Assembly: GCA_003141555.1 (NCBI GenBank)
Contig: PLMN01000009.1
Location: 103,497-167,496 of the forward strand
Direction of reading: 5' to 3'
Source of the DNA: Candidatus Aminicenantes bacterium
GTDB taxonomy: Bacteria > Acidobacteriota > Aminicenantia > Aminicenantales > UBA4085
DNA: 64,000 nt
Below, piece after piece: positions 41,739-61,834 of the stretch. The translations under genes and the position numbers were made by a program. A model generated the notes under the pieces. That model did not search any database, had not been told where the DNA came from, and saw only the letters and a list, made by a program, of their open reading frames with translations. How positions within the stretch are numbered: the first letter of the stretch is position 1; every line of letters starts with the position of its first letter.

Positions 41739-42407
41739 ATGAAGAGAAAGCCGCTGATCATCGGGGTTGCCGGCGGAACGGCCTCGGGGAAGACCACGAT
41801 TGCCAATGCCATCATGGAGTCCATCAACCATCCCCAGATGGTGGTAATCCAGCACGACTCCTATTATAAAGACGTCAGCCATATGCCCTTGGTCGAGAGG
41901 GCCAAGATCAATTTCGACCATCCCGACGCCCTGGAAACCGATCTGATGGTTCGCCATCTGCGGGAGCTGATCGCCGGCCGCTCGATCGAAATGCCGGTCT
42001 ATGATTTCTCCACCCATACCCGCCTGTCCAAGGGGATCGTCAAGAACCCGGCCAAAGTGATCATCCTCGAGGGGATCCTGATCTTTTGCGAACAGGCCCT
42101 CCGCGAGCTGATGGACGTCAAGATCTTCGTGGACACGGACAGCGACCTGCGCTTCATCCGCCGGCTGAAGCGCGATATCCAGGAGCGCCAGCGCAGCCTG
42201 GAGTCGGTGATCGGCCAATACCTCGGAACGGTGCGGCCCATGCACATCGCCTTCGTCGAGCCGAGCCGCAAGTACGCCGACATCATCATCCCCGAGGGCC
42301 ACAACCCGGTTTCCACGGCCCTGGTCGTCACCATGATCCGCCAGCGCCTGCGCAAGGGAAACCAGGAGGAGAGCTTCAAACCCGGCCCGGAGATCGCCCA
42401 TGGCTGA
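41739..42407 (+). CDS. udk: Uridine kinase
   Basis: IGVAGGTASGKTT, DSYYKD, NFDHPDA, EGIL, RFIRRL.RD..ER, PMH..FVEPS. Confidence 0.95.
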   Translation: MKRKPLIIGVAGGTASGKTTIANAIMESINHPQMVVIQHDSYYKDVSHMPLVERAKINFDHPDALETDLMVRHLRELIAGRSIEMPVYDFSTHTRLSKGIVKNPAKVIILEGILIFCEQALRELMDVKIFVDTDSDLRFIRRLKRDIQERQRSLESVIGQYLGTVRPMHIAFVEPSRKYADIIIPEGHNPVSTALVVTMIRQRLRKGNQEESFKPGPEIAHG

Positions 42408-42966
42408 AAAGCAGTACATCGAGGCCCAGGACCTGCTGGACGATTCCTTCCGGCTCGGCCTCAAGGTCCTGGACAGCGGGTTCCTGCCCGATTTCATCGT
42501 CGGCATCTGGCGGGGCGGCACGCCGGTGGGCATCGCCGTCCAGGAGCTGTTCGAGCATCGAGGCATCGCCAGCGATCACATCGCCATCCGGACATCGTCC
42601 TACGAAAGCATCGAGCAGCGGGGCAAGACGATCCGGGTCCACGGCCTGAACTATATCGTCAAGAAGGCCGACGCGGGGGACCGCCTCCTGATCGTGGACG
42701 ACGTCTACGATACCGGCTTGAGCATCCAGGCCGTGATCGATGCCCTGAACCGCCTTTCGCGGCGCAACGCGCCCCGCGACATCCGCATCGCCACGGTCTA
42801 CTTCAAGCCCGGCAACAACCGCACCGACCGCCGGCCCGATTACTATATCCATGAAACCGACAAATGGCTGGTCTTTCCCCATGAATTGAAAGGTCTCACC
42901 CCGGAGGAGATCGCCCAAAACAAGCCCGAGATCGCCCGGATCATCCAAGGACACGGCCCCAAATGA
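42400..42966 (+). CDS. Type I purine phosphoribosyltransferase (hypoxanthine/xanthine-guanine PRT-like)
   Basis: WRGG, PRPP loop LIVDDVYDTGLS, WLVFPHE. Confidence 0.88.
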   Translation: MAEKQYIEAQDLLDDSFRLGLKVLDSGFLPDFIVGIWRGGTPVGIAVQELFEHRGIASDHIAIRTSSYESIEQRGKTIRVHGLNYIVKKADAGDRLLIVDDVYDTGLSIQAVIDALNRLSRRNAPRDIRIATVYFKPGNNRTDRRPDYYIHETDKWLVFPHELKGLTPEEIAQNKPEIARIIQGHGPK

Positions 42967-44207
42967 TCATCAGCCAGGAATTCATCCAAAAGATCCCCAA
43001 GACAGATCTGCACCTGCATCTGGACGGCTCGCTCCGCCTTTCGACCCTGATCGAGCTCGCCCGGGAACAGAAGGTCAAGCTGCCGGCCTATGACGAGAAG
43101 GGCCTGCTCCGGCTGGTGTTCAGGAAGAAATATGCCAACCTGAACGAATATCTGGAGGGGTTCAAGTACACGACGGCGGTCCTCCAGACCGCTTCCGCCC
43201 TGGAGCGGGTGGGCTACGAGCTGGCCCAGGACAACCAGGCCGAAGGAGTGCGCTACATCGAGGTCCGCTTCGCCCCCCAGCTGCATCAGAACGCCAACCT
43301 GACGTGCATCGAGGCCATGGCCGCGCTCAATGCCGGCCTCGTCCGGGCCAAGGAGGAATTCAACGCCCGGCCGGAAGTGGCGAGCGGGACCGAACCGCCC
43401 TTCGAATACGGCATCATCGCCTGCGCCATGCGGATGTTCGATTACGGATTCTCCTACTATTACGACACCCTCCTTCGCGTCCACGCCCATTCCGGGCGCA
43501 AGGAAGTATTTTCCCTGGCCTCACAGGAGCTGGTTCGCGCGGCGGTGGTAGCCAAAACGCAGCTCAAGCTGCCCATCGTCGGGTTCGATCTGGCCGGCGC
43601 CGAGGCCGGGTTCCCGGCCGAGGACCACGCCCAAGCTTACGCCCTGGCCCACAAGAACTTCCTGAACAAGACCGTTCACGCCGGTGAAGCCTACGGGCCG
43701 GAGAGCATCTTCCAGGCCATCACCGACCTGCACGCCGACCGCCTGGGCCATGCCGTCTATCTCTTCGACGCGGACATGATCAAGAGCGCGGAGATCAAGG
43801 ACAAGAAGGCCTACGTCGCCAACCTGGTTCAGTTCATCGCCAACCACCGGATCACCATCGAAGTCTGCCTGACCTCGAACATGCAGACGAACCCGGCCAT
43901 TCGCCGTCTATCCCAGCACTCGTTCCGTCTCATGCGCAAGGCGAAGCTCTCGGCGACGTTCTGCACCGACAACCGGACCGTGTCGCGCACCACGGTCAGC
44001 GCCGAGATCCTCAAGGCGGTCCGGGCCTTCGACATCACCCCCCACGAGCTCAAGAATTTCATCATCTACGGTTTCAAGCGCAGCTTTTTCCCCGGGACCT
44101 ACATCAAGAAAAGGGAATATGTCCGCCAGATCATCGACTACTATGAGAAGATCGAGAGGCAATTCGCGAAAGTGCGGCGCGGCCGGCCGATGAAAATCAA
44201 GGGCTGA
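42963..44207 (+). CDS. add: Adenosine deaminase family protein
   Basis: PKTDLHLHLDGS, EVRFAP, GFDLAGAE, HAGE, TDN. Confidence 0.9.
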   Translation: MIISQEFIQKIPKTDLHLHLDGSLRLSTLIELAREQKVKLPAYDEKGLLRLVFRKKYANLNEYLEGFKYTTAVLQTASALERVGYELAQDNQAEGVRYIEVRFAPQLHQNANLTCIEAMAALNAGLVRAKEEFNARPEVASGTEPPFEYGIIACAMRMFDYGFSYYYDTLLRVHAHSGRKEVFSLASQELVRAAVVAKTQLKLPIVGFDLAGAEAGFPAEDHAQAYALAHKNFLNKTVHAGEAYGPESIFQAITDLHADRLGHAVYLFDADMIKSAEIKDKKAYVANLVQFIANHRITIEVCLTSNMQTNPAIRRLSQHSFRLMRKAKLSATFCTDNRTVSRTTVSAEILKAVRAFDITPHELKNFIIYGFKRSFFPGTYIKKREYVRQIIDYYEKIERQFAKVRRGRPMKIKG

Positions 44208-44245
44208 TCGCCCCGCCGGGCGGGAGCCGTTTTCCGGAGCGATTC

Positions 44246-45511
44246 CTAAGGATGGATGTTCTGCATCTGCCGGCCGTCGTGCTTGTGCCGGAATAGCACG
44301 GCAAACAGGACCGCCACCACGAGCGAATACGCGGCGAACGTCGTCCAAATCGCCTTCCAGTTGAACTGGACGGCGTTGGGATCGGCGCTGATCTTGAAAT
44401 ATTTGTCGATGAGGATTCCGCTGATCCGGCCGCCGAAGAAAGCGCCGAAGCCGTTCGTCATCATCATGAACAGCCCCTGGGCGCTGGCCCTGATCCTCGG
44501 CTCGCTCTGCGTTTCCACGAAAAGAGAGCCCGAGATATTAAAAAAGTCGAAGGCCATTCCGTAGATGATGCAGGACAGGACGATCATCCACAGTCTTTGG
44601 GCGGGATCGCCGTAGGCGAACAGGCCGAACCTCAAGACCCAGGCGATCATGCTGAAGAGCATCACTCTCTTGATCCCGAATTTCCTGAGGAAGAAGGGAA
44701 TGGCCAGGATGAAGAGCGTCTCGGATATTTGGGAAATAGACATGATGATGGCCGGAAACCGGACGGCGATGGTGTTCTTGAAGATGTCGATCTTCGCGAA
44801 GTCGTGCAAAAACGTGTCCCCGTAGGCGTTCGTCAGCTGCAGGGACGCGCCGAGGAGCATGGCGAAGATGAAGAACAGGGCCATTTTCGAGCTCTTGAAC
44901 AATTTGAACGCGTCCAGCCCCAGGGCCTGGACGAAGGACCTCTTGTGGCCCTTCCCCAGGGGGGGGCACTTCGGCAGGCTGAACGCATACAAGCCCAGGA
45001 AGAGCGACGCGGCCGAAGCCACGTAAAACTGGGCCGGCGATTTTTCGAAGCCCGCGAGGCTGATGATCCACAAGGCGACGATGAAGCCGATCGTCCCGAA
45101 GACCCGGATGGGAGGGTACTCCTTGATGATATCCAGGCCCTGGGCTTTCAGGGAGGAATACCCGACCGTAATCGCGAGGGCGATGGTCGGCATGTAGAAG
45201 ATCATGCTGGCCAGCATCACCCAGAAGAAAAGCGACGGATCGTTGATGAGGGGGATGCAAAAGAGAATGACCGCGCCGATCAAATGGAAGCAGCCGTACA
45301 GCCGTTCGGCATTGACCCACCGGTCGGCGATGATGCCGGCGATCGCGGGCATGAACAGGGAGGCGATGCCCATGGTCGAGAAAATCGCGCCGAATTCCGT
45401 GCCGGACCAATGCTTCGTCTGGAACCAATAGGCCCCGACCGTCAGAAGCCAGGTCCCCCAGATGAAGAACTGCAGGAAATTCATGGCGATCAATCTTGTT
45501 TTGAGTTTCAT
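44246..45511 (-). CDS. nupG: Nucleoside:H+ symporter NupG/XapB
   Basis: L..MNFLQFFIWG.W, YMPTIAL, PPIRVFGTIGF, SQISE, YGMAFDFFNISGS. Confidence 0.92.
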   Translation of the reverse strand: MKLKTRLIAMNFLQFFIWGTWLLTVGAYWFQTKHWSGTEFGAIFSTMGIASLFMPAIAGIIADRWVNAERLYGCFHLIGAVILFCIPLINDPSLFFWVMLASMIFYMPTIALAITVGYSSLKAQGLDIIKEYPPIRVFGTIGFIVALWIISLAGFEKSPAQFYVASAASLFLGLYAFSLPKCPPLGKGHKRSFVQALGLDAFKLFKSSKMALFFIFAMLLGASLQLTNAYGDTFLHDFAKIDIFKNTIAVRFPAIIMSISQISETLFILAIPFFLRKFGIKRVMLFSMIAWVLRFGLFAYGDPAQRLWMIVLSCIIYGMAFDFFNISGSLFVETQSEPRIRASAQGLFMMMTNGFGAFFGGRISGILIDKYFKISADPNAVQFNWKAIWTTFAAYSLVVAVLFAVLFRHKHDGRQMQNIHP

Positions 45512-46236
45512 GGAACCCTCTTTTCTCGGATTTGCCATCCTTCGATCAACCCGGGAAGCTCTTTGATGTCGGCGATGATGAACCGGGCCGCCTGGCCGGG
45601 GGGCACGGGCGCCCTGTGCGGGTTGAGCCAGCAGAAATCCATGCCCGCGTTGCGGGCGGCGGCCATGTCGGAGGTCACGCTGTCGCCGACGTAGAGGACG
45701 TCGCCGGCGGCGACGCCGACCGCCTTCAGGGCGGGGGCGAAAATCCGCGGATCGGGCTTGGCGATGCCGACCTCCTCGGAGATGACCACGGCCTGAAAAT
45801 GGCGGGTGATGGGCGAAGCGGCGAAGCGCTTCCGCTGCACCAGGGCGATCCCGTTGGTGATCAGGGCCAGGGGGTATTTCTTCGCCAGGGCTCGGACCGT
45901 GGCCAGGGCGCCGGGATACAGCTGCGGTTGGCCGGCCAAGGTTTCGAGGTAAAAGGCGCTGACCCTCTCCACGGGCAGATCCGGGAGGCTGAATTCGGCG
46001 GCCACCCGGCGGAAGCGCTCGACGCGGAGCGTGGCCTGGTCGGTCTCACCCCGCTCGAAGGCCCGCCACACGTCGCGGTTGTGGCGGCGGTAGGCGTCGA
46101 TGAAAATTCCCGAGGCGATGCGAACCCGGAATTCCCGGAGGCAGGCCCGCACGGCCGCCCGTTCGGCCCGGGGATAATCGAAGAGGGTATCGTCGGCGTC
46201 AAAAAAGACCGCCTTGTATTTCGCCCCCATCGTCAT
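45508..46236 (-). CDS. HAD-family pyrimidine 5'-nucleotidase (YjjG-like)
   Basis: FFDADDTLFDY, ITNG, KPDPRIF, VGDS..SD; ATGA overlap with pdp. Confidence 0.88.
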   Translation of the reverse strand: MTMGAKYKAVFFDADDTLFDYPRAERAAVRACLREFRVRIASGIFIDAYRRHNRDVWRAFERGETDQATLRVERFRRVAAEFSLPDLPVERVSAFYLETLAGQPQLYPGALATVRALAKKYPLALITNGIALVQRKRFAASPITRHFQAVVISEEVGIAKPDPRIFAPALKAVGVAAGDVLYVGDSVTSDMAAARNAGMDFCWLNPHRAPVPPGQAARFIIADIKELPGLIEGWQIREKRVP

Positions 46237-47576
46237 GAATACGTCCAAGGACGGGCGCCGTCCTTGTCCACCAGATGCAAAATCATTTTCGGCTCGGCCA
46301 CGGGCCGGGGTCCGATCCGGATCGCCTCGCTCAGCCGTTCCAGGACGATCGGCGTCTGTTCGGGGCGGTCGCTGTGGACGGTCACGATCGTCCGGCCTTT
46401 TTCGACCCTATCGCCGACCTTGGCTTGGAAGACGAAACCGCTTCCGTAGCCGACCGCATCTTCTTTCTTGCGCCGGCCGGCCCCGGTATCTATGGCCGCC
46501 ATGCCGACGAGCAACGAATCGATGGCCTCGATGAACCCGGACGCCGGCGCCGCCCATTCCACCTGTTGGGGGCTGGCGGGCAGCAACGAATAATCGTCGC
46601 AGACGCGCGGGTCGCCGCCCTGGGCGGCGATGAACCGCCGGAAGACGCTCAAAGCCCGGCCCGAGGCGATGGCCTCCCCGAACCGATCGATCGCCTGGGC
46701 ATAGCTCGTCTCGATGCCGGCCGCCCGCAGCATGCAGAAGCCGAGGGCAGAGGTGACCTGCATGATGTCCTCGGGCCCCTTCCCTTTCAGAGCTTCGATG
46801 GATTCGATGATCTCCAGGCTGTTGCCCACGGCCCGGCCGAGGGGCTGGTCCATGTTGGAAATGATGCCCAGCGTGGGGCGGCCGGTCTTTTCGCCGATGG
46901 CGACCATGGCCCGGCATAAGCGCAGGGCGTCCTGTTCGTCTTTCATGAAGGCGCCGCTGCCGGTCTTTACGTCGAGGACGATGCCGTCCGTGCCCAGGGC
47001 CAGCTTCTTGCTCATGATCGAGGAGGCGATGAGGGGGATCGAGGAGACCGTGGCCGTGGCATCGCGCAGGGCGTAAAGCTTCTTGTCGGCCGGCACGATG
47101 CTGTCCGTCTGGCCGCAGATGACCATGCCGGTCTCGGCCAGGACGCTGCGGAGTTGGGCGGGAATGAGGAAGACATTCATGCCCGGGATGGCTTCCAGCT
47201 TGTCGAGGGTGCCGCCGGTGTGGCCCAGGCCGCGGCCGGACAGCATGGGCACGCGCACGCCGCAGGCGGCGACCAGGGGGGCCACGACGAAGCTGATCTT
47301 GTCGCCGACCCCTCCGGTGCTGTGCTTGTCGATCTTGATGCCGGGCACCCCGTCCAGGGGGATGCGATCGCCGGAGGCGAGCATGATTTCGGTCAGGTCG
47401 GCCAGCTCCCGCTCGTTCAGGCCGCGGATATAGATGGCCATCAGCCAGGCCGCGATCTGGTAGTCGGGGATTCCGCCCCCGACGTAGCCGGAGATTACGT
47501 AGGAGATCTCTTCCCGGGTGAGCTCCAAGCCGTCCCGCTTTTTGGAGATGATTTCGTACATTCCGTTGGTCATCAT
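46233..47576 (-). CDS. pdp: Pyrimidine-nucleoside/thymidine phosphorylase
   Basis: KKRDG, DKHSTGGVGDK, SGRGLGHTGGTLDKLE, SIMSKK, DVKTGSGAFMK. Confidence 0.95.
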   Translation of the reverse strand: MMTNGMYEIISKKRDGLELTREEISYVISGYVGGGIPDYQIAAWLMAIYIRGLNERELADLTEIMLASGDRIPLDGVPGIKIDKHSTGGVGDKISFVVAPLVAACGVRVPMLSGRGLGHTGGTLDKLEAIPGMNVFLIPAQLRSVLAETGMVICGQTDSIVPADKKLYALRDATATVSSIPLIASSIMSKKLALGTDGIVLDVKTGSGAFMKDEQDALRLCRAMVAIGEKTGRPTLGIISNMDQPLGRAVGNSLEIIESIEALKGKGPEDIMQVTSALGFCMLRAAGIETSYAQAIDRFGEAIASGRALSVFRRFIAAQGGDPRVCDDYSLLPASPQQVEWAAPASGFIEAIDSLLVGMAAIDTGAGRRKKEDAVGYGSGFVFQAKVGDRVEKGRTIVTVHSDRPEQTPIVLERLSEAIRIGPRPVAEPKMILHLVDKDGARPWTYS

Positions 47577-47577
47577 G

Positions 47578-47865
47578 TCACCCGCCGCCCGCCGGGGAAA
47601 AAAGGTCGAGGCGATCGCCGGCCTTGACCATGGTCTGGAGGGCCTGCCGCAAACGGATATTCTCCCCATTGATCAGGATGATGGTCCCGGCGAGCAGGCC
47701 CGTCTCCCGGTCGAGCAGCTCGTCCATGAAGCTTTGCCCGGACTGCTCCTCGGTCCGGCGCAACAGGGCCAAGACCGTCAGATCCTCGCCGGCGACCTCG
47801 ACGGTCGCGGCCCGCAGGCGCCGGCGGAGCAGCCCGTAGAACTTGACCACGATCGTCCCCGCCAA
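47578..47865 (-). CDS. MoaD/ThiS-family sulfur carrier
   Basis: VKFYG.LR, ILING, C-terminal FSPAGGG; directly after the AOR gene. Confidence 0.85.
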   Translation of the reverse strand: MAGTIVVKFYGLLRRRLRAATVEVAGEDLTVLALLRRTEEQSGQSFMDELLDRETGLLAGTIILINGENIRLRQALQTMVKAGDRLDLFSPAGGG

Positions 47866-47866
47866 A

Positions 47867-49636
47867 TTACAGCCCCAGCTCCGCCAGAGTTTCCGGCCGC
47901 GGCGCGCCGTTCCGGTCCCAGCCGCGCACGGCGTAATAGTCGTCCAGCATCTCCTCGAGCCGGACCCGGCGGTGGCGCGACGGCCCGGTCTGGAATTCCT
48001 CGTTGAAAAAGCGGGGCGGCAGGGTGTCGTCGCCCCGATTGAATCCGGCCCGGTTGTTGAAGAGCCGCTCCAGGGTGTAAATGCGGCGGCCGATCGTCAT
48101 CAGCTCCTCGTCGCTGAAATCCAGGCCCGTGACCGTGCGCAGCATCTCGGTGAAGGTGGAGATCCCCACGGCAAACTGCAGGAAGCGGCAGAGGACGGCC
48201 GAATCCACCACGGCCGAGACGTCCTGGAACAGGGCCACGAGCTCGGCCTTGCCCGCGGTGGAGAAACGGTCCAGGAAGACGGGATGGCCGAGGATCTCGG
48301 GGCCGATCATGTAGGCCCGCATATGGCAGCCGCCGCGGTTGGACGTCGCGTAGGACAAGGCCATGCCCTGCGCGCCGCGCGGATCATAAGCCGGGATCTC
48401 CAGGCCCTTGACTTGCATGGCCAGCTCGGGACGGCCGTATTTGGCCGCCAGCCGCTTCGAGCCCAGGGCGAGCTCGGCCCCGATCCCCCGCCGGTAGGCC
48501 GTATCCGTCACCCATTCCAGCAGCTTGCCGGACTCGCCCCAGCGCAAGGTTTCCTTCCAGGCTCCCGTTTCGCTGAGCTCCATGGCGCAGCCGAGGGTGC
48601 TGCCCATGGTGATGGTATCGAGCCCCAGCTCATTGCAGGCGTAATTGGCCTCGGTAATGGCCGGGAGGTCGCTGATGCCCAGGTGGGCCCCGAACGCCCA
48701 GACCGTCTCGTATTCGGGCCCTTCGCCCTGCTTGTCCCGGGTCCGGGTGGTGCGGCCGCAGCCGATCGGGCACTTATAGCAGGCGCTCTGGCGCTGCAGC
48801 AGCGTTTCGGCGATCTTCTCCCCGCTCGTGCCCTCGGCATCGTTGAACACGCCCCGGCGGAAGTTCTCGACCGGGAACATGCCGTGGGCGTTGATGATGT
48901 TGACCAGGACCGATGTCCCCAGGACCTGAAGCGATTTCCCGGTTACCGGGTTCTTGTCGACGATGCGCTCGAGGCGGTCCGCCAACGCCTTGTACTCTTC
49001 CGGATCGCTGATGGCCACGGGCCGGCTGCCGGAGGCGGCGATGGCCTTCAAGTTCTTGCCGCCCATGATCGCGCCCAATCCGCCGCGTCCCGCGGCCCGG
49101 TCCTTGTCGTTCATGATGGCGGCGAAGAGGATCCGGTTTTCGCCGGCCGGGCCGATGCAAGCCACCGACGCCTTGGACGAGAGCTCCGCTTGGATGCCCT
49201 TTTGGGTCTTCTGGGTATCGAGCCCCCAAAACGCCGAAGCGTTGCGGACGTCGACCTCGCCGTCATGGACCGAGAGGTAGACGGGCCCCGCCGCCCGGCC
49301 CTGGATGATCAGCCCGTCGATTCCGGCTCCCTTGAGCGCCGCGCCGAACTGGCCGCCGGAGCTCGAATCGCAGATGGTCCCGGTCAGGGGCGAGCGCGAA
49401 ACGACCTGGTAGCGGCCGGAGGTCATCAGCGTGCCGGTCAGCGGACCGGTCATGAAGATCAGGGCATTGTCGTCGTCGAAGGGATCCGTCGCGCTCGAGC
49501 ACAGATCACTGTACAGCTTGACGCCCAGCCCCCGGCCGCCGAGGTAACGGCGCCGCATCTCGTCGCTGACGGCAACGGTCTCCCGCTTCAAATTGCCCAG
49601 GTCGATCCTGACGATTTTCCCCATCCAGCCGTTCAT
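47867..49636 (-). CDS. aor: Aldehyde:ferredoxin oxidoreductase (W-dependent AOR family)
   Basis: MNGWMGKI.RIDL, YLGGRGLG, SPLTG, IGPAGEN, GRGG.GA.MG.KNLKAI, C..CPIGC, GPEYE, GLDTI, RGGCH. Confidence 0.93.
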   Translation of the reverse strand: MNGWMGKIVRIDLGNLKRETVAVSDEMRRRYLGGRGLGVKLYSDLCSSATDPFDDDNALIFMTGPLTGTLMTSGRYQVVSRSPLTGTICDSSSGGQFGAALKGAGIDGLIIQGRAAGPVYLSVHDGEVDVRNASAFWGLDTQKTQKGIQAELSSKASVACIGPAGENRILFAAIMNDKDRAAGRGGLGAIMGGKNLKAIAASGSRPVAISDPEEYKALADRLERIVDKNPVTGKSLQVLGTSVLVNIINAHGMFPVENFRRGVFNDAEGTSGEKIAETLLQRQSACYKCPIGCGRTTRTRDKQGEGPEYETVWAFGAHLGISDLPAITEANYACNELGLDTITMGSTLGCAMELSETGAWKETLRWGESGKLLEWVTDTAYRRGIGAELALGSKRLAAKYGRPELAMQVKGLEIPAYDPRGAQGMALSYATSNRGGCHMRAYMIGPEILGHPVFLDRFSTAGKAELVALFQDVSAVVDSAVLCRFLQFAVGISTFTEMLRTVTGLDFSDEELMTIGRRIYTLERLFNNRAGFNRGDDTLPPRFFNEEFQTGPSRHRRVRLEEMLDDYYAVRGWDRNGAPRPETLAELGL

Positions 49637-49646
49637 CGTCGCATCT

Positions 49647-50477
49647 CTACTCGTAGAATTTGTTGTATTTGTCCACGTTCGGACAGGCCAGGCACTTTTT
49701 TTTGTAATACGCGTAAACGGCCTTGGGTTGCTTGTCGAGGTTGGCGAAGCGCGCCGGGCAGATGTGGCAGGGAATTTCCTCCTCCAGCCAAGCGGTCGGG
49801 GCGAATTTGTAAAGCGACAGCCCTTCGACAACGCCCACGCTGGAGCTGAGCCCCAGGCGCGAGGCCCCGGCCTGGATCAGCCGCCAGGCGTCCTTGAAGT
49901 TTCGGATCCCGCCCGCCGCCTTGACCCCGATCTCCGGCCCCACGGTCTGGCGCATGAGCCGGACGTGGGCCGGGAAAGCCCCGAACGGCCCGAACCCCGT
50001 CGAAGTCTTCACGAATCCGGCCCCGGCCTCGACGGAGAGCTTGCAGCCGGTTATGATCTCCTCGTCGGTCAGGTAGCACGTTTCCAGGATGACTTTGACC
50101 AGCGCCGGCCGGCTGGCTTCGACCACGGCCCGGACGTCGTCGCGGACCAGGTCGTGCCTCTTGTCCCGCAGGGCGCCGACGTTGATCACCATGTCGACCT
50201 CGGCGGCCCCGTTCCGCACGGCGTCCCCGGCTTCAAACGCTTTGGCCGCGCTCGTGCCGGCCCCGAGCGGGAAGCCGGCCACGGTGCAGACCAGGACGCC
50301 GCTGCCCGCGAGCAGCTCCTTGGCGTAGCGCGTGTAGGCGCCGTTGATGCAGACGGTATAGAAGCCGAAGCTGCGCGCCTCGCTGCAGAGGTTGGCGATC
50401 TTCTTTTCGCCGGAGTGGGCGTTGAGCTCGGTATGGTCGATCATCTTGACCAGCGTTTCCCGGTCTAGATCGATCAT
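49647..50477 (-). CDS. deoC: Deoxyribose-phosphate aldolase with Cys-rich C-terminal extension
   Basis: IDHTEL, GFPLGA, EVDMVIN.G, KVILET, FVKTSTGF, VKAAGGIR; extra tail CHICP...CLACP. Confidence 0.94.
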   Translation of the reverse strand: MIDLDRETLVKMIDHTELNAHSGEKKIANLCSEARSFGFYTVCINGAYTRYAKELLAGSGVLVCTVAGFPLGAGTSAAKAFEAGDAVRNGAAEVDMVINVGALRDKRHDLVRDDVRAVVEASRPALVKVILETCYLTDEEIITGCKLSVEAGAGFVKTSTGFGPFGAFPAHVRLMRQTVGPEIGVKAAGGIRNFKDAWRLIQAGASRLGLSSSVGVVEGLSLYKFAPTAWLEEEIPCHICPARFANLDKQPKAVYAYYKKKCLACPNVDKYNKFYE

Positions 50478-50519
50478 GGTCGTTCTTCTCGGTATCCTAT
50501 TCTTAACGGCGCGGCTTGG

Positions 50520-50921
50520 CTAAGAGCCTTTTTTCAGGTGGAAGGTAAACGGCATCAGCTCGGCCACGGTGGCGTCGCGGCAGGCGCCCGCCTTGTTGCA
50601 CATGTGGATGACGGCGGAAGGGGGCGCGAATTCGGCGATGACCTGCCGGCAGGCGCCGCAGGGCGGGAGGAAGTCTTCGATGTCGCCGATGACCAGGATC
50701 TCCCGGATCTCCCTTTCGCCCGCGGCGACCATGGCGAAAATGGCGTTGCGCTCTGCGCAGCAGGTCAGCCCCAAGGAGGAGTTCTCCACGTTGCAGCCGC
50801 TGTAGATCCGGCCATTGGAGCCGAGGACGGCCGCGCCCACGGGGAAATTCGAATGCGGGGCATAGGCTTTATCGCGCGCCCGCCTAGCCGCGGCCAGTAA
50901 TTCCTTTTTTTTATCAGCCAT
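50520..50921 (-). CDS. cdd: Cytidine deaminase (homotetrameric type)
   Basis: AYAPHS.FPVGAA, GCNVEN, CAERNA, PCGACRQV. Confidence 0.95.
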   Translation of the reverse strand: MADKKKELLAAARRARDKAYAPHSNFPVGAAVLGSNGRIYSGCNVENSSLGLTCCAERNAIFAMVAAGEREIREILVIGDIEDFLPPCGACRQVIAEFAPPSAVIHMCNKAGACRDATVAELMPFTFHLKKGS

Positions 50922-50956: not shown

Positions 50957-50985
50957 ATTTTAGATGCACGGAGAGAATAAATCAA
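50957..50985 (-). promoter_or_regulatory. sigma70-like promoter of the cdd-deoC-aor operon
   Basis: TTGATT-N17-TAAAAT on the minus strand; SD GGAGG before cdd. Confidence 0.6.
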
Positions 50986-51393: not shown

Positions 51394-53880
51394 ATGAGGC
51401 AAAACGGCGAATTCCTGACCGAGGCCCAGCTCAGGGCCGAGATCGAAGCGTGTGAATACTGCCGGGAGAAGCCCTGCCGCGAGGCCTGCCCGGCCGACGT
51501 CTCCCCGGCCGACTTCATCATGGCCGTGCGATTAGGCGCGCCCTCCGATTATCGGCGCGCCGCGGCCCTGATCCTGGGCGCCAACCCCCTCGGCGGCGTG
51601 TGCGGCGCCGTCTGCCCCGATAAGTACTGCGTCCAGGCCTGCGCCAAAGCACCCGTGGACCGCCCGGTTCGCATCCCGGCGGTCCAAGCCGAGATCGTCC
51701 GCCGGGCCAAAAAGCTGAAGGCCCTGCCCAGTTTCCCTGCCGCGCCGGAATCGGGCCAGCGCGCCGCCGTGATCGGCGCCGGGCCGGCCGGGCTCGCGGC
51801 GGCGGCCCTTCTGGCCCGGAGCGGGCTGGCCGTGGACGTCTTTGAGCGCGAAGCCCGCGCCGGCGGCATGGCCAACCTCATTCCCGACGACCGGCTGCCC
51901 AAGGAAGTCCTGCGCTCGGACATCCGCTTCCTTGCCGGGCTGGGCCGCATCCGCATCCGCTTCCGCCGGCCCGTGGACGATCCCCGCTCCCTCCTTGAGC
52001 AGGGCTTCGCCGCCGTCGTCGTCGCCACCGGGCTGGACGTTCCTCTGCGCCTGGGGATTCCCGGCGAAGAGCAGGCCCAAGACTGGATCCGCTTTTTATC
52101 CCAATCGACCCGCAAGTCCCCGGCCGGCCGCCGACTGGCCGTCATCGGCGGCGGAGCCGTGGCCGCCGACTGTGCCGAGACGGCCGCCCGTCAGAGAGCC
52201 TCGGTCGAGATGATCTGCCTGGAAACCCCCGGGGAGATGCCCCTGACGCCCGAGGAGCGAGACGGTCTGCTGAAGGCCGGCGTGCTGATCACCGGCCGCT
52301 CCGCCGTGACCGCGATCCGCGCCGCCGCCGGCGGGAATCTCGCCCGCATCCAGCCGATGCGCCTGCCGCCGGGCCGGACTTTCAGCCCTCGCCTCATGAC
52401 CCCTGATCCCCGCCAGCCGGCCTTTTCTCGGAGCTACGACGAGATCGTCGTCGCCATCGGCGCCCGCTCCCGGCTCACCGTTCAGGATGGCCCCGGGCTC
52501 TATTATGCCGGGGACATGGCCGAGGGGCCGGGCACGGTCGTCGCCGCCGTGGCCTCGGGCAAGAACGCCGCCCAACGCGCGCTCGACGGGCTCGCCCGCA
52601 AGCGCACTCCGAAGCAAACCGCGGGCAAGAGCCGCATCATCCTGCCCGGCCACAACCTGCGACCCGTCCCCCTCGATGCGGATTTCTTCGGCCGGACGAT
52701 CCTTTCGCCGTTCCTGCTCTCGGCCTCGCCGGCCAGCGACGGCGCCGACCAGCTCCGCCTCGCCTATCGGGCCGGCTGGGCGGGCGGCGTCCTGAAGACG
52801 GCCTTTGACGGCGTGCCGATCCACATTCCCGCCGACTATATGTTCGTCTTTAACCAAGGCACCTACGGTAATTGCGATAACGTCTCGGGGCACGCTCTGG
52901 ACCGCGTCTGCCGCGAGATTGAAGAGCTCGGCCGCGAGTTCCCCGAGCGGCTGACCGTGGCTTCGACCGGCGGCCCGGTCACGGGAGCCGCCGAGGCCGA
53001 CCGCGCGGTCTGGCAGGCCAATACGCGAAAGTTCGAGGCGGCGGGAGCCATGGCCATCGAATACAGCCTGTCCTGCCCCCAAGGCGGGGACGGCACGCGC
53101 GGCGATATCGTCTCCCAGGACGCCGATTTGACCGCCCAAATCATCGAATGGGTTCTGTCGGGGGCTTCGCGGCCGGAGGTGCCGAAGCTCTTCAAACTGA
53201 CCGGGGCGGTGACGGCTATCGCCCCGATCCTGAAGGCCATCCGGGCCGTTTTCGACCGCCACCCCCAGCATAGCGCCGGGGTGACGCTGGCCAACTCCTT
53301 CCCCGGCCTCGCCTTCCGGCCGGGAGCGAAGAAAAAATGGGACGAGGGGATCGTCATCGGCATGTCCGGCGAGGGTATCCTTCCCATCAGTTGCCTGACC
53401 CTGGCCAAGGCGGCCGGCCTCGGCGTCCCCATTTCGGGCAACGGCGGCCCGATGAACTATCGCCAGGCCGCCGATTTCCTAGCCCTCGGGGCCGAAACGG
53501 TCCAGTTCTGCACGCTCGTCCTGCACTATGGAGTCGAGATCGTCGAGGACCTGCACGCCGGGCTGAGCGGCCTCCTGGAAAGCCTGGGCCTCGGCTCCGT
53601 CTCCGAGCTGATCGGGCGGGCCCTGCCCCATCCGATCCGCGATTTCCCCGACCTGACTGCGGAGAAACGGATTTCGACCGTTGAGCGCCGCCTCTGCGTC
53701 CACTGCGGCAATTGCAGCCGCTGCCCCTATCAGGCGATCGAGCTCAGCCGCCGCGGGATCCCTCATACCGATCCGGCGCGCTGCATCGGCTGCTCGCTCT
53801 GCGTTCAGCGCTGCTTCGCCGGGGCGCTTTCGATGCGCGAGCGGAGCGCCGCCGAGCGCGCCGCACTTCGGGAGGATTAA
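51394..53880 (+). CDS. Fused PreT-PreA-like Fe-S flavoenzyme (dihydropyrimidine dehydrogenase-like reductase)
   Basis: N-terminal CxxC...PC..ACP and CGAVCP...C, GAGPAG and GGGAVA Rossmann motifs; DHOD-like barrel (GW.GGVLKT, SLSCP, KLT); C-terminal 2x[4Fe-4S] ferredoxin. Confidence 0.85.
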   Translation: MRQNGEFLTEAQLRAEIEACEYCREKPCREACPADVSPADFIMAVRLGAPSDYRRAAALILGANPLGGVCGAVCPDKYCVQACAKAPVDRPVRIPAVQAEIVRRAKKLKALPSFPAAPESGQRAAVIGAGPAGLAAAALLARSGLAVDVFEREARAGGMANLIPDDRLPKEVLRSDIRFLAGLGRIRIRFRRPVDDPRSLLEQGFAAVVVATGLDVPLRLGIPGEEQAQDWIRFLSQSTRKSPAGRRLAVIGGGAVAADCAETAARQRASVEMICLETPGEMPLTPEERDGLLKAGVLITGRSAVTAIRAAAGGNLARIQPMRLPPGRTFSPRLMTPDPRQPAFSRSYDEIVVAIGARSRLTVQDGPGLYYAGDMAEGPGTVVAAVASGKNAAQRALDGLARKRTPKQTAGKSRIILPGHNLRPVPLDADFFGRTILSPFLLSASPASDGADQLRLAYRAGWAGGVLKTAFDGVPIHIPADYMFVFNQGTYGNCDNVSGHALDRVCREIEELGREFPERLTVASTGGPVTGAAEADRAVWQANTRKFEAAGAMAIEYSLSCPQGGDGTRGDIVSQDADLTAQIIEWVLSGASRPEVPKLFKLTGAVTAIAPILKAIRAVFDRHPQHSAGVTLANSFPGLAFRPGAKKKWDEGIVIGMSGEGILPISCLTLAKAAGLGVPISGNGGPMNYRQAADFLALGAETVQFCTLVLHYGVEIVEDLHAGLSGLLESLGLGSVSELIGRALPHPIRDFPDLTAEKRISTVERRLCVHCGNCSRCPYQAIELSRRGIPHTDPARCIGCSLCVQRCFAGALSMRERSAAERAALRED

Positions 53881-55233
53881 ATGGCGAAACCGACGGACCG
53901 GCAACCCGAACGCCTGCTGATCATTAACGGCCCGATCTTCACCGGCGGCGCGGATTTCGCCCTGCTCGAAGGGCACGGCCTCCTGCTCGAGGAGGGCCGT
54001 ATCGCCAAGATCGCCCCGCTGCGCAAGCTTCGGTCCCAGGGCACGCGCCAGATCGACGCCCGGGGCAAGCTGATCATGCCCGGCCTGATCAACGCCCATA
54101 TGCATTTCTATAGCACGCTGGTGCGCGGGCTGGGCAAGGCCGCGCCGGCCCACGATTTCGACGGCGTGCTGCACAACCTCTGGTGGCGGCTCGACCGCAA
54201 GCTGACGCTCGAAGACACCTACTACAGCGCCTTGATCATGATGCTGGCCGCCGTGCGCAGCGGTACGACGACCTTGATCGACCACCACGCCAGCCCCGGG
54301 GCGATCCCGGGCTCCCTGAAGCGGATCGCCCGGGCGGGATCGGAGACCGGCCTGCGCATCGGCTTGGCATACGAAATTTCGGACCGGGACGGCGCTAAAG
54401 CCGCCGCTGAAGGACTAACCGAGAACGCCGAAGCCGTGCTCTATTGCCGTGATCACGGCGGCGAACACCTGCGGGCCTTGGTCGGCCTGCACGCCTCGTT
54501 CACCCTCTCGGATCTGACCCTGGCGCGCGCCGCAACCCTGGCCGCCGATTTGGGCGTAGGCTGCCATATCCACTGCGCCGAGGCGGCGAGCGACCAGGAG
54601 GACTGCCTGGCGAAGCACAAGATGCGCGTCGTTGAGCGCCTGAAGCGCCGCGGCATCCTCGGCCCGAAGACGATCGCCGCTCATGCCGTGCATGTCGACA
54701 GGATCGAAATCGAGACGCTGGCCGACTCCGACACCATGGTCGTCCACAACCCGCAGTCCAACCTGAACAACGCCGTGGGCATCGCCGACATCGTGGCCAT
54801 GAAGGCCGCCGGGGTCCTGGTCGGGCTGGGCACGGACGCCATGACCGTGGATATGCTCGAAGAGCTGCGGGTGGCGCTCTGGGCCCAGCATTACGGCCGG
54901 CGCGACCCCGCCCAGGGCTTTGCGGAGGCGACCGGAGCCCTGTTCTCGGGCAACCCGGCCATCGCCGAGCGCATCTGGGGACTGCCTTTGGGCAGGATCC
55001 GCGAGGGAGGGCCGGCCGACGTGATCCTGGTCGACTACGATCCGCCCACGCCGCTCGACGCCGGCTCCGTCCTGGGACATATCGTCTTCGGCGTGTCTCA
55101 GTCGGCGGTGGACACCACGATCGTCGCCGGGCGCGTCCTGATGGAAAACAAGGCCTTGAAGCTGGACATCGACGAGGGGCGCGTCGCCGCCCGCAGCCGC
55201 GAGCTGGCGACGGCCCTCTGGCAGCGTTTCTGA
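53881..55233 (+). CDS. ssnA: SsnA-like aminohydrolase
   Basis: PGLINAHMHFYS, LWWRLDR.L, GTTTLIDHHASP, GLHASFTLSD, HNPQSNLNNAVG, GLGTD. Confidence 0.9.
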   Translation: MAKPTDRQPERLLIINGPIFTGGADFALLEGHGLLLEEGRIAKIAPLRKLRSQGTRQIDARGKLIMPGLINAHMHFYSTLVRGLGKAAPAHDFDGVLHNLWWRLDRKLTLEDTYYSALIMMLAAVRSGTTTLIDHHASPGAIPGSLKRIARAGSETGLRIGLAYEISDRDGAKAAAEGLTENAEAVLYCRDHGGEHLRALVGLHASFTLSDLTLARAATLAADLGVGCHIHCAEAASDQEDCLAKHKMRVVERLKRRGILGPKTIAAHAVHVDRIEIETLADSDTMVVHNPQSNLNNAVGIADIVAMKAAGVLVGLGTDAMTVDMLEELRVALWAQHYGRRDPAQGFAEATGALFSGNPAIAERIWGLPLGRIREGGPADVILVDYDPPTPLDAGSVLGHIVFGVSQSAVDTTIVAGRVLMENKALKLDIDEGRVAARSRELATALWQRF

Positions 55234-55249
55234 AAGGCGAGGCGAAGCA

Positions 55250-56518
55250 ATGATCGATTATGCGGCGATCCTGGAGCGGGCCCATAAAGGCGAACAAGAG
55301 CTGGTCGATTTCCTGGTCGACCTGTTGGCCATCCCCTCCCCTTCCGGCAAGGAAGGGCGGGTCACGGAGCGGATCGCCGCCGAAATGCGCCGGCTCGGCT
55401 TCGACGAGGCGCGCATCGACGGGCTGGGCAACGTGATCGGCCGCATCGGGAACGGCCCGCGCCTTGTCGCCTTCGATGCCCACGTGGATACCGTCGAGGC
55501 CGGCGACCGGACGCAGTGGTCGTTCGATCCCTTCCAGCCGCGCGTCTCCGAGGGCAAAGTCTGGGGACGCGGTGCCGCCGACCAGAAGAGCGGCCTGGCG
55601 AGCATGGTCCACGCCGGACGCATCATCCGGGAGCTGGGCCTGGGTCGGAGTTTCACCCTGCTCTTCGTCGGCAGCGTCCAGGAAGAAGATTGCGAAGGGA
55701 TGGCCTGGAAATACCTGGTCGAGGAGGAGAAAATCCGGCCGGAGCTGGTCGTGCTCACCGAGCCGACCAGCCTCGCCATCTACCGCGGCCACCGCGGCCG
55801 GATGGAGATCGAGGTCGAGGTCCGCGGCCGGAGCTGCCACGCCTCGGCGCCGGAGCGTGGCGACAACGCCGCTTACAAGGGCGCCCGTATCGCCTTGGAG
55901 ATCGAGAAGTTGAACGAGAGGCTGGCAACCGACGTCTTCCTCGGCAAGGGCACGGTCGCCGTGACCGAGATCGCCTCCGGCTCGCCTTCGCTCTGCGCCG
56001 TGCCCGACACCACCCGCCTGCACCTCGACCGGCGCCTGACCGCCGGCGAGACCAAGACGAGCGCCGTCGCCGAAGTGCGCGAAGCGGCCGGCCGGGCCGG
56101 CATCCCCGAGGCCGAAGTGATCGTGCCCGAGTATCGCGTTCCCTCCTACACGGGGAAGATCGTTCCTTATGAAAAGTATTTTCCCACGTGGGTTCTCGAG
56201 GAAAGCTCCTCCTGGCTGAAGTCCGCCGCCGCGGCCTACGCCAGTCTCTTCGGAAAGGAGCCGAAAATCGACAAGTGGACCTTCAGCACCAACGGCGTCG
56301 GCATCATGCCCGTCTATGGCATCCCCTGCCTGGGATTCGGCCCCGGACACGAGCCGCAGGCACACGCCGCCGACGAGTACTGCCCCGTCCGGCATCTCCC
56401 CCTCGCCGCGGCCTTCTATGCGGCCCTGGTGGCTGCACTATCGGATAAAAGCGCGGCGCTTTCGGGCAAAGCCGCGCCGATGCCGGCTAAAGACCCGGCA
56501 TCGGTGGGCAAGGGCTGA
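55250..56518 (+). CDS. ygeY: YgeY-family M20 hydrolase
   Basis: DAHVDTV, GRGAADQK, VQEEDCEG, TEPT, GHRGRMEI, SCHASAPERGDNA, WTFSTNGV, GFGPG.E..AH. Confidence 0.9.
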   Translation: MIDYAAILERAHKGEQELVDFLVDLLAIPSPSGKEGRVTERIAAEMRRLGFDEARIDGLGNVIGRIGNGPRLVAFDAHVDTVEAGDRTQWSFDPFQPRVSEGKVWGRGAADQKSGLASMVHAGRIIRELGLGRSFTLLFVGSVQEEDCEGMAWKYLVEEEKIRPELVVLTEPTSLAIYRGHRGRMEIEVEVRGRSCHASAPERGDNAAYKGARIALEIEKLNERLATDVFLGKGTVAVTEIASGSPSLCAVPDTTRLHLDRRLTAGETKTSAVAEVREAAGRAGIPEAEVIVPEYRVPSYTGKIVPYEKYFPTWVLEESSSWLKSAAAAYASLFGKEPKIDKWTFSTNGVGIMPVYGIPCLGFGPGHEPQAHAADEYCPVRHLPLAAAFYAALVAALSDKSAALSGKAAPMPAKDPASVGKG

Positions 56519-56529
56519 TCCCGCACATC

Positions 56530-57756
56530 ATGACCGAATTTCAATATCGCTGCAGCCGCTGCGGCCGGACCTACGGACGGGACGAGGTCCGCTACTTGTG
56601 TCCCGAGTGCGGCCGCGACTATGCGCCCGGGATGCCGCTCATCGGCGTGCTCGAGGTCGAATTCGACTACCGCGACATCGCCAGACGCTTCGATCGCTCC
56701 AGGCCCGACTGGGACCTCTTCTCTCCGGTGGAGTGGGAATATTTCCCCGTCTATCCGGCGGGCAACACGCCCTTCGCCCCGGCGCCGCGGCTGGGCGAAC
56801 GCCTGGGCCGGCCGCGGCTCTGGATCAAGAACGACGGCCTCAATCCCAGCGGCTCGCTCAAGGACCGCGCCTCGCTCCTCGTCGTGGCCGAGGCGGCGCG
56901 CCTCAACGAAACGAAGGTCGTCTGCGCCTCGACCGGCAATGCCGCGAGCTCCCTGGCCGCCGTCTGCGCCGCCGCCGGCCGCCGGGCCGTCATCTTCGTC
57001 CCCCAGTCGGCGCCCCGGGCCAAGCTCATCCAGATGCTGATCTGCGGCGCCCGCGTCATTCCGGTGCGCGGCAGCTACGACGACGCCTTCCGGTTATCCC
57101 TTGAATACACGCAGCTGCGCGGCGGCCTGAACCGCAACACCGCTTATCACCCGCTGACGATCGAGGGCAAGAAGACCGCCGGCCTGGAGATTTTCGCCCA
57201 GAACGGGTTGCGCGTTCCCGATGCCATTCTGGTGCCCGTGGGCGACGGCGTCATCATCAGCGGTATTTACAAGGCCTTCCACGACCTGCGCGCCGCCGGG
57301 CTCTGCGAGCATCTGCCGCGGCTCGTCGCCGTGCAGGCCGAGACCTCGGCCGCGATCCATGACTACATCGTCAGCGGGATCTTCCGTCCGGCGGTCTCCC
57401 CCACGACCATCGCCGATTCGATTTCCGTCTCCGTGCCGAGCAACCCGGACTTGGCCCGCCGCGCCGTGCTGGAGAGCGGCGGGTTTTCGCTCACGGTCAG
57501 CGACGAGCGCATCCTGGAGGCGCAGGCGCTGCTGGCCGGCCGGACGGGGGTTTTCGCCGAGCCCGCCGCGGCGGCGGCTGCAGCCGCCCTCCTCTCCGAC
57601 GAAGCCCGCCAACGGCTCGATCCCGATTGGCAGGTCGTCCTCCTGGTCACCGGCCACGGATTGAAAGACATCGAAGCTCCGCTTTCGCGCTTACGCATTC
57701 CCGAGGCGGTGCCGGCCGATTTCGCGGCGCTGCCCGAAGACATGCCGGAGAATTAG
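56530..57756 (+). CDS. Threonine synthase-like PLP (fold type II) enzyme with N-terminal Zn ribbon
   Basis: CSRC/CPEC; NPSGSLKDR (PLP Lys), ASTGNA, EGKKT, PVGDG, TGHGLKD. Confidence 0.85.
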   Translation: MTEFQYRCSRCGRTYGRDEVRYLCPECGRDYAPGMPLIGVLEVEFDYRDIARRFDRSRPDWDLFSPVEWEYFPVYPAGNTPFAPAPRLGERLGRPRLWIKNDGLNPSGSLKDRASLLVVAEAARLNETKVVCASTGNAASSLAAVCAAAGRRAVIFVPQSAPRAKLIQMLICGARVIPVRGSYDDAFRLSLEYTQLRGGLNRNTAYHPLTIEGKKTAGLEIFAQNGLRVPDAILVPVGDGVIISGIYKAFHDLRAAGLCEHLPRLVAVQAETSAAIHDYIVSGIFRPAVSPTTIADSISVSVPSNPDLARRAVLESGGFSLTVSDERILEAQALLAGRTGVFAEPAAAAAAAALLSDEARQRLDPDWQVVLLVTGHGLKDIEAPLSRLRIPEAVPADFAALPEDMPEN

Positions 57757-61825: not shown

Positions 61826-61834
61826 GAGTCATTC

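Follow-up and report, generated by a model that had tools for sequence, protein, structure and literature searches.

We analysed a stretch of 64,000 nucleotides from contig PLMN01000009.1 of an uncultured Candidatus Aminicenantes bacterium from sediment (assembly GCA_003141555.1, forward-strand positions 103,497 to 167,496), referred to as the window. Its minus strand carries the operon cdd-deoC-aor-moaD-pdp-yjjG-nupG, in which the gene for an aldehyde:ferredoxin oxidoreductase (AOR) directly follows deoC, the gene for a deoxyribose-phosphate aldolase (DERA). The two genes likely constitute a dedicated, probably coupled DERA-AOR module that oxidizes the acetaldehyde derived from DERA to acetate with ferredoxin. 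The linkage of the two genes, a C-terminal tail on DeoC with four conserved cysteines (Cys4 tail), the parallel diversification of the two proteins, and a predicted DeoC-AOR complex bear on this reading.

Linkage of deoC and aor in bacteria and archaea

In a survey with one genome per species, 393 stretches encode relatives of the window AOR. The best 80 were kept, and their neighbouring genes were found by tblastn with the window proteins. deoC lies directly upstream of the AOR gene in 45 of these 80 loci, and a gap of 8–17 nt separates the two genes at most linked loci. Three loci are cut by a contig end and 32 are without deoC; for two or three of these 32, the upstream sequence is too short for a call. 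Most of the related contigs bear the label Candidatus Aminicenantes or Acidobacteria. The full order cdd-deoC-aor-moaD-pdp-yjjG is present in the loci labelled Aminicenantes/Acidobacteria and in a small number of close relatives with other labels; at the other linked loci, the deoC-aor pair alone is kept.

An AOR tree of 80 rows was built from the window, 76 loci, and three paralogues of the same genome; L013, L026, L041 (partial), and L069 (which has a stop) were left out. The 44 deoC-adjacent rows, together with two rows cut by a contig end, form one clade of 46 (SH-aLRT 99). The remaining 34 rows all lack a nearby deoC. The bacterial contigs of the clade are labelled Aminicenantes/Acidobacteria, Cloacimonadota, Armatimonadota, Planctomycetia, and a Kofleriaceae metagenome-assembled genome (MAG; Myxococcota), and the archaeal contigs Hadesarchaea, Bathyarchaeia, Thermoplasmata, and one further archaeon. 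Adjacency of deoC and aor is the defining trait of one AOR clade across bacteria and archaea. Chance adjacency was rejected, since the linked loci come from many phyla and fall into one clade. Nor is the arrangement unique to this genome, a possibility that the preliminary description of the locus, made from the sequence alone, had raised.

The neighbourhood of the pair varies outside Aminicenantes. In three Cloacimonadota loci (L020, L031, and L043), deoC-aor is followed by a gene for a double-domain ThyX of ~500 residues (~9780-11350 in each locus), and neighbouring open reading frames (ORFs) of L014 and L040 match those of the three loci in size, a comparison of size only. The upstream genes identified in L031 are housekeeping genes (rlmN, PSP1, and nucleotidyl transferase), not genes of nucleoside catabolism.

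Several further features were seen at these loci. Two Cloacimonadota contigs contain an ORF of 191–206 residues with an HxH motif (PNHFHFF) between deoC and aor (L036:7342-7917 and L039:987-1607), which we take to resemble a REP-associated or IS200-like transposase. Upstream of deoC-aor in a Thermoplasmata locus (L054:4995-6227) lies a gene for a PfkB-family sugar/nucleoside kinase that carries a 4Fe-4S dicluster (ferredoxin-like) domain as an insertion at residues ~237–293. Three Thermoplasmata loci encode a protein of ~590 residues downstream of deoC-aor with a weak match to PEPCK_ATP.

DeoC with a Cys4 tail

The window deoC is the only copy in its genome (a single tblastn match). The best solved relatives of the protein are DERAs, all of which align only to residue ~220 of the query. 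K157 and K186, located in the VKTSTG and VKAxGG stretches, are invariant and presumably have catalytic roles.

The core is followed by a tail of ~55 residues, which is present on every DeoC adjoining the AOR clade. Residues W230, E234, P236, C237, C240, P241, P251, C262, and C265 of the tail are invariant in 33 such DeoCs of bacteria and archaea. The Cys4 tail is found on no solved DERA among the structure relatives, and no Pfam family matches it at E≤0.001 among 23 tails. Hints of LRV_FeS and Zn-ribbon families (E 0.045–0.24) were too weak to use.

A word-indexed search with the tail returned 126 proteins of 67–100% identity. Among the 120 listed are 117 with the DeoC Pfam domain; the remaining three, at 159–180 residues, are short fragments. 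A profile of the 23 tails, compared with 1.84 billion cluster representatives, matched 15 proteins at E≤0.001. Seven of them (ranks 1–3, 7–9, and 14) are DeoC C-termini or fragments, and ranks 4–6 (306, 286, and 316 residues) match at the C-terminal end, like DeoC. Ranks 10–13 and 15 are weak multi-stretch matches, and the DeoC assignment covers the other ten.

In an AlphaFold model of full-length DeoC, with a mean predicted local distance difference test (pLDDT) score of 92.9, the tail folds into a small, mostly helical unit with pLDDT values of 77–94. The tail folded alone has a pLDDT of 69. Its look-alikes in a protein atlas scored 0.80–0.83, which is chance level, and were discarded.

Co-inheritance and predicted complex of DeoC and AOR

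A DeoC tree was built on the core with the tail columns removed. It repeats the branching order of the AORs, including one archaeon that groups with bacteria. In both trees, Hadesarchaea, Bathyarchaeia, and Thermoplasmata lie on one side, followed by the single archaeon, Planctomycetia, and Kofleriaceae, and then by Cloacimonadota and Aminicenantes. The matching odd placements indicate that the two genes travel as a unit. Pairwise identities of DeoC and AOR are correlated with r=0.95 over 528 pairs, a figure inflated by kinship.

A complex was predicted from the AOR and full DeoC, with an alignment of 33 rows for each and one Zn. The prediction scored 0.66, 0.66, and 0.64 in three runs, compared with 0.00 for the best of three controls. 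The 0.66 level is attained by 116 of 157 solved complexes and by 2 of 215 mismatched pairs, a mark that is only rough here given our own alignments and the riding Zn. At least 86% of the contacts recur between runs, and the pLDDT of the partner is at least 89. A memorised pass is unlikely, since no AOR structure entry contains a solved DERA chain.

The predicted contacts involve residues 217–229, 450–473, 489–496, 509, and 513 of AOR and residues 6, 32–37, 193–196, and 212–235 of DeoC. On the DeoC side, the predicted interface is composed of the loops after barrel strands 7 and 8 and the first part of the tail. We take these loops to be the catalytic face of DERAs. On the AOR side, it would lie in domains 2 and 3, near His438 and Cys483 in sequence. 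These models suggest that DeoC and AOR probably form a physical complex.

The Cys4 tail and the likely physical coupling are beyond what the preliminary description observed. With a conserved, co-evolving DERA-AOR module that bears a diagnostic tail, the finding is stronger than stated there.

Class and active site of the AOR

The AOR matches both Pfam domains of its family over the full length and above the gathering scores (PF02730, 248.8 bits against 29.8, residues 6–203; PF01314, 482 bits against 27, residues 220–589). Its closest solved relatives are 9mqx (617 bits, E 4e-184), Pyrococcus furiosus AOR (1aor, 588 bits, E 2e-175), 9g7j (572 bits), and A. aromaticum AorB (8c0z, 496 bits). FOR, WOR5, and BamB are weaker relatives, at 313, 227, and 177 bits, respectively. 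The YdhV-type AOR model NF007354 matches only the N-terminal domain (218.8 bits against 868). By sequence comparison, the AOR groups with broad-substrate AORs and not with GAPOR or FOR.

In the alignment with 1aor, the CxxCxxxC, EGPEYE, GGCH, and DSxxLC stretches are retained. C286, C289, C293, C483, H438, and the EGPEYE stretch in the region of E308 align with 1aor and are invariant in 33 clade members. By this correspondence, we take C286, C289, C293, and C483 to be ligands of the [4Fe-4S] cluster, and the Glu and His to be active-site residues. The broad-substrate AOR of A. aromaticum oxidizes acetaldehyde at 19.9 U/mg, according to passages of PMC6365974. The class of the window AOR, as judged from its sequence, is consistent with acetaldehyde as substrate, and glyceraldehyde-3-phosphate (G3P) is also compatible.

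The window AOR thus resembles 1aor and 8c0z in full-length homology and in its aligned cofactor and cluster motifs, but differs from them in three respects. It belongs to a separate clade marked by the DeoC neighbour, its operon is without an electron-transfer subunit of the AorA or AorC type, and it would serve one pathway intermediate instead of a pool of aldehydes derived from amino acids.

The genome contains four AORs, namely the window AOR and three paralogues. The closest paralogue is 48% identical and lies at G000:C5:15194-20492, where it is preceded by a poly-ferredoxin-like protein of 155 residues and followed by a membrane protein of 1000 residues, a layout unlike the deoC-linked one. 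Another cluster, at G000:C7:144252-147963, encodes an AOR (611 residues), a MoaD-like protein (75 residues), and an aldehyde-dehydrogenase-family protein (539 residues); a further gene presumably resembles an Rrf2-like regulator.

MoaD-like protein and cofactor genes

The small protein encoded after aor has the ThiS/MoaD fold (PF02597, 42.3 bits against 22.5), and its sequence ends in ...AGGG. It falls below the MoaD-specific cut-offs of TIGR01687 (moaD_arch, 34 against 49.5) and SAMP1 (37.9 against 60). The genome has three ThiS/MoaD-like genes, each near one of three AOR paralogues. Such genes also stand beside AORs outside the deoC-linked clade among the best 80 loci, and in Cloacimonadota L031 a ThiF-ThiS pair is encoded on the opposite strand, at a distance of a few kb. 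Passages of PMC6365974 describe aorD and aorE, located beside aor, as putative maturation factors of the tungsten cofactor.

Since MoaD-like genes are known beside aor and accompany AORs generally, the MoaD-like protein belongs to the AOR and not to the deoxyribose pathway. It is a probable accessory for maturation of the AOR cofactor. The preliminary description had counted moaD as part of the novelty of the locus, and that part falls away with the precedent of aorD and aorE.

MoaE (PF02391) was not found in the window's own genome, which is 97.4% complete, and has no match across the 21 genomes searched within the order, 16 of which are at least 90% complete. The own genome nevertheless contains MoaC and MoeA (molybdenum cofactor genes at G000:C17:4893-8478), the four AOR paralogues, and a xanthine-dehydrogenase-like enzyme.

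Operon layout and transcription

The operon genes were named by Pfam and NCBIfam profile matches (Table 1), which confirm all seven assignments of the preliminary description and their common strand. The span 47578-50921 given there runs exactly from moaD to cdd. Its further statement, that gaps are at most 10 nt from deoC onward, agrees with the sequence as read: deoC and aor are separated by 10 nt, aor and moaD by 1 nt, and moaD and pdp by 1 nt, while cdd and deoC are 42 nt apart. moaD starts with TTG. With internal ATGs as starts, pdp and yjjG, as well as yjjG and nupG, would overlap in the ATGA manner, and the true start of nupG is probably the ATG at 45511.

Table 1. Features of the window, with the profile matches or scans on which each name is based
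Feature	Position	Strand	Evidence
cdd, cytidine deaminase (133 aa), first operon gene	50921..50520	-	TIGR01354, 140 bits vs cut-off 113.65; PF00383
deoC, class I deoxyribose-phosphate aldolase (276 aa)	50477..49647	-	TIGR00126, 266 bits vs 117.3
deoC catalytic core, residues 1–220	49818..50477	-	TIGR00126 over residues 9–215
deoC C-terminal Cys4 tail, residues 221–276 and stop	49647..49817	-	33-DeoC alignment; outside the TIGR00126 model
aor, aldehyde:ferredoxin oxidoreductase family (589 aa)	49636..47867	-	AFOR_N, 249 bits; AFOR_C, 482 bits
moaD, ThiS/MoaD-like beta-grasp protein (95 aa), C-terminal GG	47865..47578	-	PF02597, 42 bits vs 22.5
pdp, pyrimidine-nucleoside phosphorylase	47576..46233	-	TIGR02644, 537 bits vs cut-off 409
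yjjG-type pyrimidine 5'-nucleotidase (HAD)	46236..45508	-	TIGR02254, 188.5 bits vs cut-off 159.9
nupG-type nucleoside:H+ symporter, last operon gene	45538 or 45511..44246	-	TIGR00889, 496 bits vs 446; PF03825 from residue 10
Promoter-like site TTGATT-17-TAAAAT, ~36 nt upstream of cdd	50957..50985	-	Consensus scan only; no evidence of function
Terminator-like hairpin right after nupG	44200..44214	-	Consensus scan only
5'-nucleotidase-like	34007-35668	+	Resemblance only: NF006934, 127.8 vs 1646; UshA NF007109, 108.9 vs 600
tdk, thymidine kinase	35687-36256	+	NF003300, 236.6 bits vs cut-off 195
deoB, phosphopentomutase	36326-37516	+	NF003766, 535 bits
Purine nucleoside phosphorylase	37526-38347	+	NF006054, 349 bits
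udk, phosphoribosyltransferase, adenosine deaminase	41721..44207	+	Pfam/NCBIfam
Purine/pyrimidine-degradation genes, divergent from cdd	51394..63037	+	NCBIfam, some below cut-off

Separate transcription of aor, which the preliminary description had considered, has no sign in its favour. The gap to deoC is short, the consensus scan, which is weak evidence, detects no promoter-like site within deoC-aor-moaD-pdp, and the aor-moaD junction is bridged by RNA-library contigs in three runs. These contigs come from four wetland runs and match pieces of the operon at 99–100% identity; they are uninformative on strand, ends, and level, and DNA carry-over is possible. The deoC-aor junction is bridged by none of the RNA-library contigs listed, which are too short. 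We infer that deoC and aor are co-transcribed. Rfam contains no riboswitch or other family that matches the window at the gathering score, or the region upstream of cdd at E≤1.

Distribution within the order

Of 21 genomes in the order to which the window belongs, four have a tailed DeoC, and the AOR gene is immediately downstream in all four; one of the four AORs ends with its contig after 57 codons. Two genomes have a tail-less DeoC (41–44% identical), with no AOR within 1.5 kb and no AOR of the clade in the genome. The other 15 genomes have neither DeoC nor an AOR of the clade. Since tailed DeoC always occurs with the AOR and the remaining genomes have neither, the module is an accessory, all-or-none trait.

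Surrounding nucleotide-degradation island

The window has a G+C content of ~65%, and genes of nucleotide metabolism flank the operon on both sides. tdk, deoB, and the purine nucleoside phosphorylase all score above their curated cut-offs. deoB is unique in the genome (TIGR01696 matches at no other site). Together with the purine nucleoside phosphorylase, it feeds deoxyribose-5-phosphate to DeoC from outside the operon. With deoB, two nucleoside phosphorylases, nucleotidases, and a nucleoside permease located within 30 kb, all steps from nucleotide to deoxyribose-5-phosphate are encoded there.

In the udk group, udk is above its cut-off (NF004018, 290.7 against 180) and the phosphoribosyltransferase is named from PF00156 (40.2 against 26.3). 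The adenosine deaminase is named from PF00962 (214.8 against 27), with the NCBIfam equivalogs below cut-off (best NF006847, 258.6 against 412). A minus-strand ORF of 1069 residues (38426-41635), which separates the purine nucleoside phosphorylase gene from udk, has a coding-like GC3 of 0.90 and no NCBIfam match at E≤1e-10.

The set divergent from cdd comprises genes for a PreT/PreA-like fusion, ssnA, ygeY, a pyridoxal-phosphate enzyme, a hydantoinase-like protein, xanthine-dehydrogenase-like Mo and FeS subunits, and ygeW. ssnA, ygeY, and ygeW are above their NCBIfam cut-offs. The others with below-cut-off scores are named by resemblance only: the fusion (NF009410, 217.2 against 516; PreA NF006183, 181.1 against 335), the hydantoinase-like protein (TIGR02033, 248.3 against 393.25), and the Mo and FeS subunits (TIGR03196, 462 against 783.65; NF043084, 173.6 against 217). 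The fusion (51394-53880, plus strand, 828 residues) unites the PreT-like (FAD/FeS) and PreA-like (DHODH-fold, 2x4Fe-4S) halves of dihydropyrimidine dehydrogenase in one protein. It is kept in the same position, divergent from cdd, in related Aminicenantes loci.

Proposed pathway

In the proposed pathway, tailed DeoC would cleave 2-deoxyribose-5-phosphate to G3P and acetaldehyde, and the partner AOR would oxidize acetaldehyde to acetate. The preliminary description had inferred this fate of acetaldehyde, coupled to reduction of ferredoxin, and the results support it. The [4Fe-4S] cluster of the AOR would relay two electrons to ferredoxin, which may contribute to energy conservation. The catalytic face of DeoC and the start of the tail would rest on domains 2 and 3 of the AOR. 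So placed, DeoC would pass the toxic, volatile aldehyde on to the AOR without releasing it. The MoaD-like protein would act as a sulfur carrier for the AOR cofactor, in which tungsten is the probable metal. The module would operate in an operon of nucleoside uptake and phosphorolysis, itself placed within a larger island of nucleotide, purine, and pyrimidine degradation. The permease, deaminase, nucleotidase, and phosphorylase of the operon, along with the degradative island, argue for the catabolic direction.

Several observations weigh against this pathway. The module is patchy, occurring in four of the 21 genomes of the order, and was not found in a genome of the same genus. Beyond Aminicenantes, the deoC-aor pair lies outside a catabolic gene context, and in Cloacimonadota it adjoins thyX. 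No ferredoxin gene was found among the operon proteins with Pfam and NCBIfam, and a search of the genome for an [FeFe] hydrogenase was negative. For the whole clade, the AOR substrate is a guess between the two aldehydes of DeoC. The basic residues specific to the clade, including R484 beside a cluster-ligand Cys (L in outgroup AORs), could fit a phosphorylated substrate.

The predicted interface also has points against it. The four cysteines of the tail lie outside it. Strictly clade-specific residues occupy 2 of its 28 AOR positions, which is not significant (p=0.30). Positions diverged from outgroup AORs are enriched there (13/28, against 134/561 elsewhere; p=0.009), but the p value is 0.068 when the background is limited to variable positions. 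The hydropathy shift of the clade relative to the outgroup is +0.80 at the interface and -0.09 elsewhere (p=0.028). These interface statistics are only modest, and the sequences are not independent.

Alternative readings

It is unlikely that the AOR acts on the other product of DeoC, oxidizing G3P to 3-phosphoglycerate with ferredoxin in a GAPOR-like manner and bypassing GAPDH and PGK, with acetaldehyde dealt with elsewhere. Such an activity would fit the position of G3P, which leaves DeoC from the very active site placed against the AOR in the model, the membership of GAPOR in the AOR superfamily, and the basic clade-specific substitutions (L to R 484, E to K 234, T to K 274, and H to R 556). 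Acetaldehyde could be taken by about three genes of the Aldedh family, represented in the genome by four matches at three loci. However, the archaeal GAPOR model NF040818 matches the AOR at 37.9 bits against a cut-off of 1300, and among solved enzymes the broad-substrate AORs are the nearest, far ahead of FOR, WOR5, and BamB. The ATP of PGK would be lost, and the toxic product would be left unaddressed.

Absence of any specific coupling is a still less probable reading, in which the AOR is a general aldehyde scavenger that happens to be located beside deoC, and the complex prediction is spurious. AORs have broad substrate ranges, the genome contains four of them, the predictor passes some mismatched pairs, and the interface statistics are weak. 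Against these points stand the exclusive, clade-wide adjacency in at least five bacterial phyla and three archaeal groups, the mirrored trees, and the occurrence of the DeoC tail only with the deoC-linked AOR clade.

In an anabolic reading, the AOR would use reduced ferredoxin to convert acetate to acetaldehyde, and DeoC would condense it with G3P to deoxyribose-5-phosphate for the synthesis of dTMP and deoxynucleosides (deoB, pdp, tdk, and thyX), independently of ribonucleotide reductase (RNR). DERA, phosphopentomutase, and nucleoside phosphorylases are reversible. The thyX gene after the pair in the three scanned Cloacimonadota loci, the housekeeping genes upstream in L031, and the presence of tdk within the island agree with this direction, and AORs reduce acids according to PMC6365974 and PMC9295118. 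The reduction of acids is uphill, at an E0' of about -0.6 V in a passage of PMC6365974, and the neighbours of the operon in the window are degradative or serve uptake (nupG, cdd, nucleotidases, and the xanthine dehydrogenase cluster). Class I/II RNR is present in the own genome and in 11 of 12 other module-bearing genomes, so we regard the anabolic reading as very improbable, and replacement of RNR was rejected as the main explanation. There is likewise only a slim chance that the tailed-DeoC/AOR pair is reversible and makes deoxyribose-5-phosphate from acetate and G3P when ferredoxin is highly reduced. If true, the pair would be an RNR-independent route to the sugar of DNA and would explain why thyX, and not a set of catabolic genes, adjoins it in Cloacimonadota.

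The least probable alternative, oxidation of open-chain deoxyribose or deoxyribose-5-phosphate by the AOR to deoxyribonate in a side branch parallel to DeoC, has its substrate at hand and a counterpart in the oxidative deoxyribose pathways of aerobes, but the operon is without downstream deoxyribonate genes (Pfam and NCBIfam) and the strict pairing with DeoC favours action on a DeoC product.

Comparison with known systems

The Aminicenantes operon and the deo operon of E. coli type (deoCABD, nupG, and cdd) use the same enzymes for uptake, deamination, phosphorolysis, and DERA cleavage, and both have deoC and a pyrimidine nucleoside phosphorylase gene in one operon. However, the two layouts differ in several respects. 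The Aminicenantes operon has aor and moaD between deoC and pdp, its DeoC bears the Cys4 tail, and deoB and the purine nucleoside phosphorylase gene lie ~10 kb away on the other strand. A single transcription unit of the deoCABD type is not found; of its four genes, the operon has deoC and, in place of deoA, the deoA-like pdp. Acetaldehyde passes to NAD- or CoA-linked enzymes in the E. coli layout.

The predicted hand-over of acetaldehyde from an aldolase to an oxidoreductase encoded by the adjacent gene resembles aldolase-dehydrogenase channelling in DmpFG and BphIJ. Those systems are non-homologous, and their NAD/CoA-dependent acylating dehydrogenases yield acetyl-CoA. The AOR, in contrast, is a pterin/FeS enzyme and would yield acetate and reduced ferredoxin.

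DERA microcompartments (in Atribacteria and Auribacterota) and the DeoC operons of Family 4B encapsulins face the same problem of containing acetaldehyde from DERA. A protein shell is present there, whereas the Aminicenantes locus is without shell genes and direct docking of DeoC onto a dedicated AOR is predicted. Passages of the reconstructions of these systems propose AORs as cytosolic sinks of aldehydes (PMC6281690; PMC9324843; PMC8346489). In excerpts of MAG reconstructions, it is suggested in passing that AORs might oxidize aldehydes derived from DERA or microcompartments (PMC9324843; PMC6281690), and a passage of PMC3543383 implies the same. A full-text literature search, with subscription journals outside its coverage, found no description of a deoC-aor operon, a DeoC tail, or a DERA-AOR complex; in this literature, the view of the preliminary description that the layout is undescribed holds.

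Implications

The physiological roles of most of the AOR family are unclear. Here, strict linkage in two domains of life ties one AOR clade to one step and gives it a function open to direct test. A genuine complex would add a third means of containment for the toxic acetaldehyde of DERA, beside microcompartments and the NAD/CoA-linked aldolase-dehydrogenase pairs, and one that captures the very low redox potential of the aldehyde as reduced ferredoxin. The conserved Cys4 tail offers a simple sequence marker for the module in metagenomes. If the proposed pathway is true, Aminicenantes, Cloacimonadota, and several archaeal lineages of anoxic sediments and digesters would be consumers of the sugar of DNA and deoxynucleosides.

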